A stretch of DNA of 64,000 nucleotides, from sequence record JN673056; one strand, 5' to 3'. The stretch comes from Escherichia phage PhaxI. Made by a program: the position numbers and the translations under genes. Under the pieces are notes generated by a model. That model was not told the DNA's origin. It searched no databases and saw only the letters and a list, made by a program, of their open reading frames with translations. The stretch's first letter is position 1; every line of letters begins with the position of its first letter. Below, in pieces: positions 44,597 to 49,266 of this stretch.

Positions 44597-44675
44597 GGTG
44601 ATTCTCCTTATTTCATTGGATAAAATGATAGGGCTGTCACCATGTTGAGTAAAGGGTTTCAATAAACTATCGTAT

Positions 44676-45125
44676 TCAGAAACGGGTATCGCTGACCGTT
44701 CTGTATCGCACACCCTGAAACTGTTTAGCGAGTTTAACAAATTCCATCGCTGGCAAATCAACTTTGTAGACCTTCATGCGCTGTTTGCCGTCCATGTTCA
44801 ACGCAGCGACAAATCGGTGAGACCCGTCAACAACGTAATTGTCAGAAGACACCCAAACTCGACCCATGGGCTTCTTATTTCTGATCTGCTTCATAATCTT
44901 CCAGACCTTCATTTTATTGATTTCGTTCTGGGTAAGACGAAGCATTTTGATGGGCACTTGCGCAGCATCTATGGACACGCCGTTGTCTTCAAGATATTTG
45001 TGAAAATCTTCTTGTTTGTCGGCATCGATTTGCGGCATAGAAGAACGAGAAAGCCCGAGGTTCCCAACAGGAATCCTCAGGCCATTTATGATATTCATCC
45101 AGTCAATAAAGGATGTAAGGAACAT
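44676..45125 (-). CDS. ParB-like nuclease domain protein
   Basis: YVVDGSHRFVAA matches the ParB/Srx-fold GxHR motif; 149 aa. Confidence 0.5.
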   Translation of the reverse strand: MFLTSFIDWMNIINGLRIPVGNLGLSRSSMPQIDADKQEDFHKYLEDNGVSIDAAQVPIKMLRLTQNEINKMKVWKIMKQIRNKKPMGRVWVSSDNYVVDGSHRFVAALNMDGKQRMKVYKVDLPAMEFVKLAKQFQGVRYRTVSDTRF

Positions 45126-45162
45126 GACACACCTCGGGATATAGGGTTATCCCTTAGTTAGT

Positions 45163-45441
45163 TCATTCGGACTTAAACAGCAATTCGCGAACAGAAGTCC
45201 CAACGATATTTTGGGCGTTCAACAAACGAGTTAAATCATCCATGTCGTATGCTGAATTGGTGACATGGCCCAAGATAATCGCCAACATTCCCTCCAGCGC
45301 TCTCCGATTGTTATTCTCTTCAATGTCAAACTTAATTTCAACAAATCGAGATAGCATTCTGGATTGAGCATGAGTTTCGTTGGTTTTGCTCTGTATAATA
45401 TCTTTGATTTCCGAACGAGCAATACTTCTTTGATCTGTCAT
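45163..45441 (-). CDS. Hypothetical protein
   Basis: 92 aa; preceded by a promoter/stem-loop/RBS cassette (AAGGAACTATATCATG). Confidence 0.4.
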   Translation of the reverse strand: MTDQRSIARSEIKDIIQSKTNETHAQSRMLSRFVEIKFDIEENNNRRALEGMLAIILGHVTNSAYDMDDLTRLLNAQNIVGTSVRELLFKSE

Positions 45442-45464
45442 GATATAGTTCCTTCATTTCAAAT

Positions 45465-45487
45465 GGGCGGGGCAAAGATACCCCGCC
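45465..45487 (-). promoter_or_regulatory. Intergenic stem-loop cassette (PeSL-like), copy 1
   Basis: GGGCGGGGcaaagataCCCCGCC flanked by TATAAAC and CATTTGAAATGAAGGAA-ATG. Confidence 0.5.
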
Positions 45488-45493
45488 GTGGGT

Positions 45494-46000
45494 TTATAGG
45501 GTAACAAGTGATACGGTAAAAACCATCGTCCCATCTGTTGTCATTTTTCTTGAAACTGGGAAGACGCGAGGCTGACAGAATATCCATTCTTTCTCCATGG
45601 ACGCCAAGTCCAGCATATCCATTTCTGATTCATCGCCTTTGTTCACAAATTTTTCTAGAGAACCAAAGACATTAAGCCCCTCTGGGAGTCCGTTTCGATG
45701 TTTATAACAAATGCGGGCAACAGCTTTGGTTCCATACGATTTAGAAAATTGTTTGGCCACATGCTTCAGTTCGCTGAAACTAAGACAAGAATCCCATGTC
45801 TGAAACATGTCTCCTCGTTCAAACATCATCTCCAAACGCGCAACGTCCTCTTTAGGCAACCCGCGATAAAGTGTGGTCATCTGCGGTTCGCGTAATTCTT
45901 GCACCAGACCACGGATGGCAGGGGAAACAGTGCCAGGGCGCATGATGTGGGACTTATCATGGACGAGGTAAAATAAATCTTGAATTTGTTGATCGGTCAT
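45494..46000 (-). CDS. Hypothetical protein
   Basis: 168 aa; preceded by a second copy of the same cassette. Confidence 0.45.
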   Translation of the reverse strand: MTDQQIQDLFYLVHDKSHIMRPGTVSPAIRGLVQELREPQMTTLYRGLPKEDVARLEMMFERGDMFQTWDSCLSFSELKHVAKQFSKSYGTKAVARICYKHRNGLPEGLNVFGSLEKFVNKGDESEMDMLDLASMEKEWIFCQPRVFPVSRKMTTDGTMVFTVSLVTL

Positions 46001-46024
46001 GATGTATTTCCTTCATTTCAAATA

Positions 46025-46047
46025 GGCGGGGTAATCATACCCCACCC
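46025..46047 (-). promoter_or_regulatory. Intergenic stem-loop cassette (PeSL-like), copy 2
   Basis: GGCGGGGtaatcataCCCCACC flanked by TATAAC and TATTTGAAATGAAGGAA-ATG; near-identical to copy 1. Confidence 0.5.
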
Positions 46048-46059
46048 TAAGTTATAGAA

Positions 46060-46293: not shown

Positions 46294-46412
46294 GATATAT
46301 CTACCTTTCACCTGTGAACCCATCGTTCGCCAGTTATTGAATATACGCATTTGCCTTATAGAAGTAAACCCCTAAAAGTAAAAATCCCCCAACGTTTGTT
46401 GGGGATCTTCAG

Positions 46413-46745
46413 TTACTTGCGCAGGGCAACCACGTATTCGGCAAGTTCACCCATGGTCGGGTCGTCGCCTTTACCGCCCAGCCAGCCATCAGAGATCTCG
46501 ACATTGAACTCTTCTTCTAGTTCCATGACGATTTCGATGGCATCAAGATCGTCGCCGCCGAGGTCTTTCTTGGTGCGGAGGCCAGCCAGTTTATCCAGGG
46601 CGTCATTCATAATCACTTCCGCGTCGACGATGCCTTTGATGCTGCTCTTGTCTTCGTCACTGACTTCCAGGTTCAGATTGTCAGTGGCGTACTGAGCCAG
46701 GTGACGCATTACTTCAACATAAGTTGGTTTGTTTGACATAAGCAT
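46413..46745 (-). CDS. Acyl-carrier-protein-like acidic protein with Asp in place of the phosphopantetheine-attachment Ser
   Basis: DLGGDDLDAIEIVMELEEEFNVEISD versus canonical ACP [26 protein letters not shown]. Confidence 0.5.
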   Translation of the reverse strand: MLMSNKPTYVEVMRHLAQYATDNLNLEVSDEDKSSIKGIVDAEVIMNDALDKLAGLRTKKDLGGDDLDAIEIVMELEEEFNVEISDGWLGGKGDDPTMGELAEYVVALRK

Positions 46746-46758
46746 ATCTCAAAATGAA

Positions 46759-46774
46759 GGCGGGTTTCCCCGCC
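46759..46774 (-). terminator. Stem-loop between the vWA gene and the ACP-like gene
   Basis: GGCGGGtttcCCCGCC. Confidence 0.45.
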
Positions 46775-46782
46775 AGTTGAAT

Positions 46783-48999
46783 TTAGATTTTGACTTCTTT
46801 TTCAGCCAGTTCGGCAGTGACGGTGTATTTCACCCCATCAACGTCCACATCCATAGTGGATTCTTCCAAATCCAGGTCGGTAAACCAACCATGGCCTGCA
46901 ACAATCCCATAAACTACCTTGGACAGCGTTTTGTTCAGAGATCGAACTTCGTTGATAGCTGCTTTTGCTGCATCACCAATCCAACTTTCGATCAGCTTTT
47001 TCTGAGTCTCTTCCGGTACGCTGGTGATCATCGGCGATTTAACAAACGCATTGTATTCGGCCAGGGCATTAGCGATCAGCTGATCAGCGACATTCAGTTT
47101 TTTACCGTCCGTCTGTTTTTTGATAACAGACGCGATGCTCGGCAGTGAAGATGCGCCTTTGATTTTCACATTCAATTCACGACTCATATAGACATCGGTT
47201 GATTCTACAGAAGAAGTCTTCGGTGAAAATCCATAGTCGCGAATGCCGTTTGCTGACAGGAAATCAGCCGCTTCTTTGCCATATTTTGAAGCCAGACCCG
47301 TAGCGTTGCCTTTTCCAACCAGTTCATCACGGTAGAATTTCAGAACTTTCTGTTTTGCCTTCAATGCTTCACGGCGCACATTGTCTGCAAAGAATTCAGC
47401 AGCACTGATATTCTTTGTCATGGCGCGGTTAACCATTGGGACACTTTCCAGATTTACAATGAAGACTTCCGGCCCACCAAACACATGAACACCCATGGCA
47501 GTCAAATCCTGTGCCACCTTAGCCCGAACAATCGGAGAATCTGCAGTGATAGGCATTGTTTTCAGGTTGATGATACCATCCTTGACAATGGTGTAATTGC
47601 GATAACGCCATGTATCCAGCTCTTCAGGAAGTTCATATTTCTTCTGTACAAACTCGGGCACAACAACCGTCCCGTGTTGAACTGTCTGCACACTGATGTT
47701 AGGACGTTCTGAATTATAGACCAAATTGCTGATCGGGACAATCCCTTTATCATCTGCTGGATTGAATTCCGGCGTCCAATCTTCGTGCTCGGCCAGTTTG
47801 AGCGCCAGGGCTTTACGCTCTTCTTTAGAAGTCGCATTCGCAATCTCTTCGGCCAACTTGTCTTCGGTGTCGTCAACTTTTTGTATAGTACCGCGCCCAA
47901 TGCTCTTGTAAGAGAATAGCGGATGCTTGGTGACGATAGAGACATCTGCTTCAGCCAAATACGTCAGAACATCAACAATGGTGGTGGCGTCTTCAGCCGG
48001 AACCATATTATAATCGATGCCATCAACTCCTCGCAGAGATTCGTCTACGATAGCCTGAGTCAGATCGACTTTGATGTTGGAGTAATCCTGCTTGGTGAAA
48101 CAGTTGCTGTATTGTTTGATGAAGCGGACGTCACCCGTTTTCTTCAGCGCAGCCCAAACCAAATCTGCGTCCATGGTATACACGCCGTAAAATGCCAGCA
48201 CGTATGCCGCTTGGATGTCTGCCAGATTATCCAGCTGGTCGATCATGTTGGGGTTTACAACCCACAGCTGAGAAACGCTTTCAGGGATGCTGACGTGGCC
48301 AATAGGGTGCTCTTCATCAGGATGCACAGCTAAAACAGTCGCCACGCCATTTTCAACATAAATGGCATGGGTGTAAACCAGGGGAACATCGACCACCACT
48401 TTCGGTGAAGAAGTTTTTAGCACGTTTTCCAATTCGGTCTGATATTCATTCTGGCCTTCGGCGAATACGTGGGTCGCACCAGAACGTTCTGCCATTAGCG
48501 CCAGCAGTTCGCGATTACAATACCAACCGTATTCGATGAAGGTAATGTTATCAAACGCTTTGGGCAGTACTTCAGCGGCATCCAGGATTTCATTAGAGCG
48601 CCAGCAGTTGTCATATCCGTCGGTCATGAACGCCAGGTTATTGACATAACCAGGTTTGTTCAGGCTCATCGCGGTTTCAGCAGCCAACTTCAGAGGTTCT
48701 ACAAATCCCGTACAACCTGACGGTTGCAGGAAGCGGTCAATCAGTTTATTGATTTCACTGAGATCGGTCGCGCTATTGATCTGACGGCCAGCGAATACCG
48801 TACCGAAATCACCACGGGATGAAAAGTAAAGAATGCTGACGGTATCTTCTGGTTTAACCAGAGACGGGAGATTTTCCTTCAGATGCTTACGGACTTCTGG
48901 AAGTGAAAGATACATGGACCGGGAGATATCCACAACGATTACATGGTTAGACGGTGCGACGGTCGCAACCGCATTCTTAAATGTTAATGATTCAATCAT
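46783..48999 (-). CDS. von Willebrand factor A (vWA) domain protein, ~740 aa
   Basis: N-terminal MIDAS-like HVIVVDISRSMY (DxSxS) plus downstream T and D positions; rest unassigned; start set at MIESLTF (GAAGGT RBS; the track ORF starts at 49035). Confidence 0.6.
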   Translation of the reverse strand: MIESLTFKNAVATVAPSNHVIVVDISRSMYLSLPEVRKHLKENLPSLVKPEDTVSILYFSSRGDFGTVFAGRQINSATDLSEINKLIDRFLQPSGCTGFVEPLKLAAETAMSLNKPGYVNNLAFMTDGYDNCWRSNEILDAAEVLPKAFDNITFIEYGWYCNRELLALMAERSGATHVFAEGQNEYQTELENVLKTSSPKVVVDVPLVYTHAIYVENGVATVLAVHPDEEHPIGHVSIPESVSQLWVVNPNMIDQLDNLADIQAAYVLAFYGVYTMDADLVWAALKKTGDVRFIKQYSNCFTKQDYSNIKVDLTQAIVDESLRGVDGIDYNMVPAEDATTIVDVLTYLAEADVSIVTKHPLFSYKSIGRGTIQKVDDTEDKLAEEIANATSKEERKALALKLAEHEDWTPEFNPADDKGIVPISNLVYNSERPNISVQTVQHGTVVVPEFVQKKYELPEELDTWRYRNYTIVKDGIINLKTMPITADSPIVRAKVAQDLTAMGVHVFGGPEVFIVNLESVPMVNRAMTKNISAAEFFADNVRREALKAKQKVLKFYRDELVGKGNATGLASKYGKEAADFLSANGIRDYGFSPKTSSVESTDVYMSRELNVKIKGASSLPSIASVIKKQTDGKKLNVADQLIANALAEYNAFVKSPMITSVPEETQKKLIESWIGDAAKAAINEVRSLNKTLSKVVYGIVAGHGWFTDLDLEESTMDVDVDGVKYTVTAELAEKEVKI

Positions 49000-49266
49000 C
49001 GTTATTACCTTCTTTGGTGGTTTGAGCGGCTTCACCTTCCGGCTTTGCCAGCATGTGTTCTATGAATTCGCGATTAGTTTCAATCTGTTGGATTAAAACT
49101 TCGCTGGGTTTAAACTGTGAGTCAAGAGAGTCAACTCTTGAACGCAAAAATGGTTTGGGCAAAGTAATTTCCCTCGCTTTACAATTGGGCCATTATACCT
49201 TGGCTTGTTAATTGAAACGCCCAGCAATTTGCCGGACGTTATTGATTTTGAAAGACTTTTGAAGAA

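Follow-up and report, generated by a model that had tools for sequence, protein, structure and literature searches.

Escherichia phage PhaxI (sequence record JN673056; the 64,000 nucleotides analysed are referred to here as the window) carries on the minus strand, at positions 44676 to 45125, a gene for a 149-residue protein. Our analysis identifies this protein, with near certainty, as a stand-alone ParB/sulfiredoxin (Srx)-fold domain that is very probably associated with the virion, and we favour, with moderate confidence, the reading that it is a virion-packaged effector enzyme dependent on nucleoside triphosphates (NTPs). The finding is not new as such, because the fold had already been assigned in automated databases and the sequence is identical to many deposited ones. 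What is added here is that the protein is probably virion-associated rather than early, that its nuclease label is unfounded, and that it belongs to a very large phage-borne clade which recurs as a module of polyvalent proteins. The gene and the elements ahead of it are the following:

44676..45125, minus strand: coding sequence of the stand-alone ParB/Srx-fold domain protein (149 aa, 17.3 kDa, isoelectric point (pI) 9.9), corresponding to CBA120 orf137, FEC14 gp115 and ViI Vi01_117c
45131..45135, minus strand: Shine-Dalgarno sequence GAGGT, 5 nt 5' of the ATG, read from the sequence
45136..45153, minus strand: small inverted repeat GGGATA-ACCCTA-TATCCC, abutting the ribosome-binding site on its upstream side, read from the sequence

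This ATG-started open reading frame (ORF), taken from the ORF listing of the window, is a genuine gene and a conserved core gene of the Ackermannviridae. The 3-kb region around it shows 99.5% identity to Escherichia phage FEC14 and 99.1% to CBA120, both of them Kuttervirus (Ackermannviridae), and has matches in 275 phage records; a tblastn search with the 149-aa protein found matches in 416. FEC14 (gp115) and CBA120 (orf137/gp108) have an annotated gene at the same position, named 'hypothetical protein' by RefSeq in both, and the UniRef name of the protein is 'ParB/Sulfiredoxin domain-containing protein'. Vi01_117c of phage ViI is 100% identical to the PhaxI protein, and the LIMEstone1 orthologue, also of 149 aa, is 83% identical to it. 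The comparison with the latter gave a ratio of nonsynonymous to synonymous substitution rates (dN/dS) of 0.06 (dN 0.108, dS 1.83), indicating strong purifying selection. In Klebsiella phage FKP10 (PP974338; locus L007, 2501-2950) a 94%-identical orthologue carries the annotation 'cytidyltransferase'. This name was probably transferred in error from multidomain relatives that combine an NMNAT-like nucleotidyltransferase with the ParB-fold domain; the 149-aa protein has no nucleotidyltransferase domain of this kind.

A preliminary description of this DNA, made from the sequence alone, had proposed a ParB-like nuclease domain in an early protein and a profile search for PF02195 as its check. The fold stood on structural grounds: the AlphaFold2 model (mean predicted local distance difference test score (pLDDT) 82, predicted template modelling score 0.76) has the alpha/beta fold of the ParB N-terminal domain and sulfiredoxin, and the BFVD database gave 26 matches at E<=1e-3, many of them named ParB/Sulfiredoxin. 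The fold comparison gave these values:

pNOB8 ParB-N: 9.0
PadC: 7.8
SbnI: 7.6
sulfiredoxin (6ky4): 7.6
SerK: 7.1
sulfiredoxin (1yzs): 7.0
KorB: 6.5
Atu1540: 6.2

The profile search itself did not bear the proposal out, since the Pfam scan of the protein returned no family, PF02195 included, even at E<=10. The NCBIfam scan was also empty, phmmer against the PDB found no related chain, and profile A1, of close homologues, gave chance matches only in the PDB, the von Willebrand factor A1 domain being one of them. Among the PHROGs the protein belongs with phrog_2859, whose function is not assigned (E 3e-45), and matches ParB-like phrogs weakly (E 0.002-0.016).

An exhaustive hidden Markov model search with the homologue alignment recovered 4,870 cluster representatives at E<=1e-3, 2,275 of them at E<=1e-10, with the family signature R..MPQ / TQxE / SxDxYxxDG[H/S]HR. 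In a set of 42 diverse relatives, ParBc_2 (PF08857) was the sole recurrent Pfam match (13 of the 42, all sub-threshold, best E 0.001). Against the PDB, the best match of the wide-family profile among ParB/Srx-fold chains was SerK (5x0j, E 0.062); SerK and its Pyrococcus homologue 1VK1 were found at E 0.06-0.17, short of significance and outscored by repeat-driven chance hits to protein A. In the alignment, IVDGHHRW of SerK falls on the family motif and Q66 on SerK residue 30, the catalytic Glu30 of the wild type; 5x0j is the best-scoring SerK chain because it has Gln at this residue. On these sequence comparisons the family is a large ParB/Srx clade without a Pfam model, nearest to ParBc_2 and SerK and distinct from the DdrB-like ParB domains. 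The elements of the PhaxI protein relevant to this assignment are:

45081..45125, minus strand: N-terminal helix, residues 1-15, modelled with lower confidence (pLDDT 62-70); found in solo Ackermannviridae-type proteins and outside the part common to the fused versions
45027..45050, minus strand: SRSSMPQI, residues 26-33, the family-specific N-terminal motif, with R27, M30, P31 and Q32 each kept in 90% or more of the wide family
44913..44942, minus strand: LRLTQNEINK, residues 62-71, with Q66 invariant and aligned with SerK residue 30 (Gln in chain 5x0j)
44802..44834, minus strand: VVDGSHRFVAA, residues 98-108, with DGSHR (residues 100-104, 44814-44828) where the fold has its phosphate-binding GxxR motif

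The VVDGSHRFVAA motif of the preliminary description was thus found where it had been seen, in the 149-aa product of this ORF. In the alignment of 42 diverse domains Q66, D100, G101 and H103 were invariant, and R27, M30, P31, Q32, K73, S93 and D95 were conserved in at least 90%. R104 is kept in 139 of the 150 best representatives of the 4,870-member family. The conservation of the gene, its low dN/dS, the invariant D100, G101 and H103 and the kept R104 therefore show that the motif is far beyond a chance string. The GxxR-type motif follows strand 3 and is aligned to DGHHR of SerK; DGHHR is also the form of the wide family, with DGSHR in the Ackermannviridae clade and its nearest relatives. In ParB the motif has the form GERR, and the CTP-hydrolysis residues of Myxococcus ParB are Q52 of QPR and E93 of GERR (PMC13229309). 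Going by motif order, Q66 and S102 of the PhaxI protein would match these two residues. A role of residues 1-15 as a packaging signal is speculative.

Several known proteins of this fold were considered as possible identities. SerK and SbnI (PDB 5x0b and 5ujd; PF0380 is 1vk1) have a catalytic Glu in a (P)HE motif, whereas the present clade is marked by DGSHR (DGHHR in SerK) and Gln66 is invariant in the family, aligned to a 5x0j chain that itself has Gln. Moreover, they possess a C-terminal substrate domain (242 aa), which is missing from the PhaxI protein, ending as it does about 45 residues after the motif, and they act in amino-acid metabolism, in contrast to the phage virions and polyvalent proteins in which the present family is met. 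The Gln in place of the catalytic Glu and the missing C-terminal domain rule out a SerK/SbnI orthologue. Sulfiredoxin (6ky4, 1yzs), whose phosphate-binding motif has the form GGCHR, was ruled out by Ser102 in the place of the catalytic Cys and by the complete lack of cysteines in the 149-aa protein. ParBc_2 (Atu1540, 2hwj) gave no match for the PhaxI protein and its matches to the relatives are under the 23.6-bit gathering score; the present family differs from it in the additional conserved N-terminal R..MPQ element. The DdrB-like ParB domain (P1 DdrB; PF18763; PMC5512222) belongs to the same superfamily and is likewise phage-only, solo or in polyvalent proteins, and it is associated with virions, as the PhaxI protein very probably is; in P1 DdrB, however, a GNGR-type motif takes the place of DG(H/S)HR, and PF18763 matched 1 of the 42 members (E 0.018). 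With hmmsearch --max, profiles A1 and A3 found no domain in the ParB region of P1 DdrB. Because the family profiles miss P1 DdrB even with all filters off, the DdrB-like ParB of Iyer et al. is a different clade, and it was rejected as the identity of the present family.

The association of the 149-aa protein with the virion is very probable, judging from the proteomics of related phages. The LIMEstone1 orthologue is labelled 'unknown structural protein; confirmed structural protein' in HE600015, and Table 2 of the LIMEstone1 paper lists, by mass spectrometry (MS), a protein of 17.31 kDa with 35.57% coverage and 5 unique peptides, the computed mass of the orthologue being 17.30 kDa. This coverage is comparable to that of neck and portal proteins, unlike the <5% of the contaminants flagged by the LIMEstone1 authors, who also state that all 12 unknown structural proteins have ViI structural counterparts. 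The identical ViI protein, Vi01_117c, is annotated as 'phage associated protein'. The 'early' label of the preliminary description has to be withdrawn as unsupported because of the LIMEstone1 MS data, the ViI annotation, the spanin pair located directly downstream of the gene and the virion protein with a von Willebrand factor A (vWA) domain encoded upstream. A literature search for Ackermannviridae transcriptomes found no data on transcription timing. Regarding promoters, no T4-type late promoter TATAAATA was present near the gene; the window contains two, both elsewhere, which is the level expected by chance. An ACCCTATAW string upstream of two genes was considered as a common expression signal and discarded as a coincidence, because one copy consists of the last codons of the ADP-ribosyltransferase (ART) gene.

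The PhaxI protein is the solo form of a domain that is built into giant polyvalent proteins in other phages. Among its 150 best relatives, 82 have at least 200 aa and 13 hold the domain twice. A census of the Pfam partners in these 82 longer proteins gave the following counts:

Zeta_toxin: 7
AAA_33: 5
CTP_transf_like: 4
PolyA_pol: 2
RelA_SpoT: 2
HINT / intein: 2
Portal_Mu, ADPrib_exo_Tox, ART-PolyVal, Acb1, GNAT and DUF3990: 1 each

Two architectures recur: in one the ParB-like domain is followed by a Zeta/AAA_33 kinase, and in the other an N-terminal NMNAT-like nucleotidyltransferase precedes the ParB-like domain, with a PolyA_pol head domain after it in some proteins. The domain is thus a repeated component of phage proteins with several effectors, in the company of kinase, ART, RelA/SpoT, nucleotidyltransferase and portal/MuF-type modules, and polyvalent proteins are a pattern of phage early effectors (Iyer et al. 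2017, PMC5512222).

A similar picture came from IMG/VR, where all of our counts refer to the matches listed: 477 of 600 pattern matches encode relatives, and the host protein has at least 300 aa in 51 of the 74 loci with a callable gene. In 76 loci the neighbourhood consisted mostly of families without assigned function (phrog_23027/14518, DUF6267, DUF3008), and a terminase was near the domain in 6. These neighbourhoods fit virion or polyvalent modules, but reveal no substrate. In 18 of the 76 loci, for example L070 and L049 (-1 gene), a domain of about 130 aa (phrog_23027/14518, no Pfam) was encoded no more than three genes away from the ParB-fold domain; for DUF6267 (phrog_455), which has a KxDG nucleotidyltransferase-like motif, this held in 7 loci. 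Both may be further uncharacterised modules of polyvalent proteins.

According to the reading that we favour, the protein would be packaged in the particle and enter the cell along with the DNA. There it would bind an NTP or a nucleoside diphosphate in the predicted DGSHR/Q66 pocket; in all characterised members of the ParB/Srx fold, the position of the DGSHR motif is the nucleotide-phosphate site. It would then act as an NTP-dependent enzyme whose role may lie in host take-over or in counter-defence at the very start of infection. For catalysis of this kind we see the balance as even. By analogy with SerK, SbnI and ToxB, phosphotransfer or NTP hydrolysis is favoured over DNA cleavage. ToxB is likewise a ParB fold without DNA-binding domains, and is a delivered effector that binds and hydrolyses ATP (bioRxiv 10.64898/2026.05.05.722872); the two are likened by description, and ToxB differs in being delivered by CdiA and in having an immunity protein, of which none is evident beside the PhaxI gene.

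A bolder proposal, which we regard as tentative and rather unlikely, is that the protein represents, in minimal free-standing form, a previously undescribed catalytic ParB/Srx clade and is injected from the virion. Using ATP or CTP, it would modify a host molecule by phosphorylation or nucleotidylation, or destroy it; a nucleotide that serves as an immune signal, or part of a defence system, might be its target. If true, this would define a new class of anti-defence enzyme packaged in advance, and the frequent fusion of the domain to Zeta-type kinases, NMNAT-like nucleotidyltransferases, RelA/SpoT, ADP-ribosyltransferases and Acb1 would be explained.

Several observations weigh against the reading of a packaged, NTP-dependent enzyme. 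Nucleotide binding is inferred from the fold and the motif only. R104 is replaced by K, T or H in about 7% of the relatives, the Ackermannviridae clade has Ser in place of the first His of DGHHR, and Gln occupies the position of the SerK catalytic Glu and of the ParB hydrolysis Gln; because of these three features, the chemistry may differ from that of every characterised member. The evidence of virion association comes from the proteomics of relatives (LIMEstone1, and ViI through its annotation), which are other phages than PhaxI. Finally, distant solo homologues in other large myoviruses adjoin a clamp loader and a helicase, or an RNA ligase and rIIB, that is, they lie amid replication and early-type genes that give no pointer to a structural module.

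The nuclease of the preliminary description would be a metal-dependent, sequence-nonspecific DNase or nickase, possibly NTP-regulated, degrading the DNA of the host or of a competitor, or nicking that of the phage. We consider it improbable, even though the nearest Pfam family, ParBc_2, is named 'Putative ParB-like nuclease', weak PHROG matches are to 'ParB-like partition nuclease' (E 0.012) and the protein is basic (pI 9.9). The ParBc_2 and PHROG matches are all below threshold and their names inherited, the 'nuclease' of ParBc_2 being a name inherited from Pfam, and the protein is without a DNA-binding domain. Furthermore, the nearest solved relative in sequence is the kinase SerK, whose Pyrococcus homologue was first reported as a ParB-like nuclease: that protein, PF0380/1VK1, is closely homologous to TK0378, for which ADP-dependent serine kinase activity has been demonstrated. 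Iyer et al. did propose NTP-regulated DNase activity for the ParB domains of polyvalent proteins, but judged NTP sensing or degradation the likelier key function (PMC5512222).

Equally improbable in our view is a non-catalytic internal virion protein, in which the basic ParB fold would bind packaged DNA or a virion component and serve in condensation, in ejection or against restriction, and the motif would have a structural or ligand-binding role. The detection in virions at a coverage like that of true structural proteins and the high pI would agree with such a protein, as would the report that a 5mYOX-associated phage ParB still activates with its NTP-site residues mutated (PMC13229309). Nonetheless, thousands of diverged sequences, among them copies in enzyme-rich polyvalent proteins, all keep Q66, D100, G101 and H103; this pattern is typical of an active site and therefore counts against a non-catalytic function.

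A link to DNA modification, also raised in the preliminary description, found no support in the neighbourhood of the gene. The protein would in this case assist DNA hypermodification, in ViI-type phages the 5-NeOmdU pathway, as an accessory factor resembling the ParB partners of thymine dioxygenases or DndB-type proteins, and we judge this very improbable. It is true that Ackermannviridae DNA is hypermodified and that phage T-dioxygenases are activated by ParB-fold proteins; those ParBs, however, are PF02195 proteins with a C-terminal dimerisation domain, encoded beside 5mYOX, kinase and AADT genes (PMC13229309), whereas the 149-aa protein has neither a PF02195 match nor a C-terminal domain. 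Its gene neighbours are spanins, a small ORF (phrog_4458), an ADP-ribosyltransferase or DenV, an acyl carrier protein and the vWA protein, and no base-modifying enzyme was found among the fusion partners in the 82 longer relatives. A canonical ParB, that is, a DNA clamp of the ParB, Noc, KorB or VirB type that depends on CTP and serves partition or transcription control, has next to no chance, being effectively refuted by domain content: the helix-turn-helix (HTH) and C-terminal dimerisation domains are absent from the 149 aa, in which the core is followed by one helix and a short strand and no HTH family is matched, and no ParA ATPase was found among the neighbours of the gene at this locus.

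The ParB-CTPase/Srx fold is coming to be seen as a general NTP-binding module, reused as kinase, toxin and enzyme activator (PMC12704722, PMC13229309 and the ToxB preprint). The present clade, phage-borne in every context examined here, numbers thousands of members, which were probably left uncounted in a recent survey of the fold because that survey began from PF02195-type models, unmatched by the family. The PhaxI protein is small, soluble-looking, conserved throughout the searched Ackermannviridae records and apparently present in the virion, and it would therefore be a convenient entry to the role of the domain in polyvalent proteins. For annotation we recommend 'ParB/Srx-fold domain protein, virion-associated', and advise against 'nuclease', 'partition protein' and 'cytidyltransferase'.

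The remaining features of the locus are given below:

45163-45441, minus strand: 92-aa ORF (phrog_4458) between the ART gene and the ParB-fold gene, an adjacency kept in Kuttervirus (ViI Vi01_118c, rabagast_58)
45494-46000, minus strand: stand-alone ADP-ribosyltransferase of 168 aa, matching only the C-terminal 156 of the 1,480 positions of the Alt-type 'RNA polymerase ADP-ribosylase' PHROG 832 (E 9e-16)
46413-46745, minus strand: acyl-carrier-protein-like gene (PP-binding, E 3e-7), conserved in the Ackermannviridae, between terminator-like stem-loops at 46759-46774 and 46386-46405
46783-49035, minus strand: vWA-domain protein of 750 aa (VWA_3, E 1e-6), five genes upstream of the ParB-fold gene
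44597-44675, intergenic, downstream of the ParB-fold gene: 79-nt spacer and indel site, where CBA120 has an extra small gene (orf136, 162 nt)

The ADP-ribosyltransferase, which had no Pfam or NCBIfam match, resembles the ParB-fold protein in being the solo version of a domain housed in giant proteins elsewhere. Its gene, located two genes upstream of the ParB-fold gene in FEC14 and CBA120, was ruled out as a conserved partner: the slot is occupied by DenV in ViI, rabagast and LIMEstone1, and Klebsiella phages have different small ORFs there. Because the upstream neighbours vary, functional coupling to the ADP-ribosyltransferase cannot be claimed. The PeSL-like cassettes noticed earlier upstream of the ParB-fold gene were confirmed. 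A 65-nt direct repeat (45430-45494 and 45989-46053, 83% identical) flanks the ART gene, and each copy comprises a G+C-rich stem-loop (GGCGGGG...CCCCGCC), ATTTGAAATGAAGGAA with a ribosome-binding site, and the start of the next gene as far as its fourth codon (MTDQ). The pair looks like a PeSL-type mobile cassette; the mobility of such a cassette would account for the presence of ART (FEC14, CBA120) or DenV (ViI, rabagast, LIMEstone1) in this slot, and the 92-aa ORF and the ADP-ribosyltransferase both begin with MTDQ because the cassette is repeated.

As for the vWA protein, its LIMEstone1 orthologue (ORF108, 81 kDa) is an MS-confirmed virion protein, and the record of one Klebsiella phage names it 'minor tail protein'. 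On the downstream side, the megablast match to this region falls in two pieces because orf136 of CBA120 is inserted in the 79-nt spacer. The same spacer contains a sigma-70-like TTTACT-17-TATCAT sequence ahead of the gene for a 229-aa signal-peptide protein, which is called i-spanin in some annotations.
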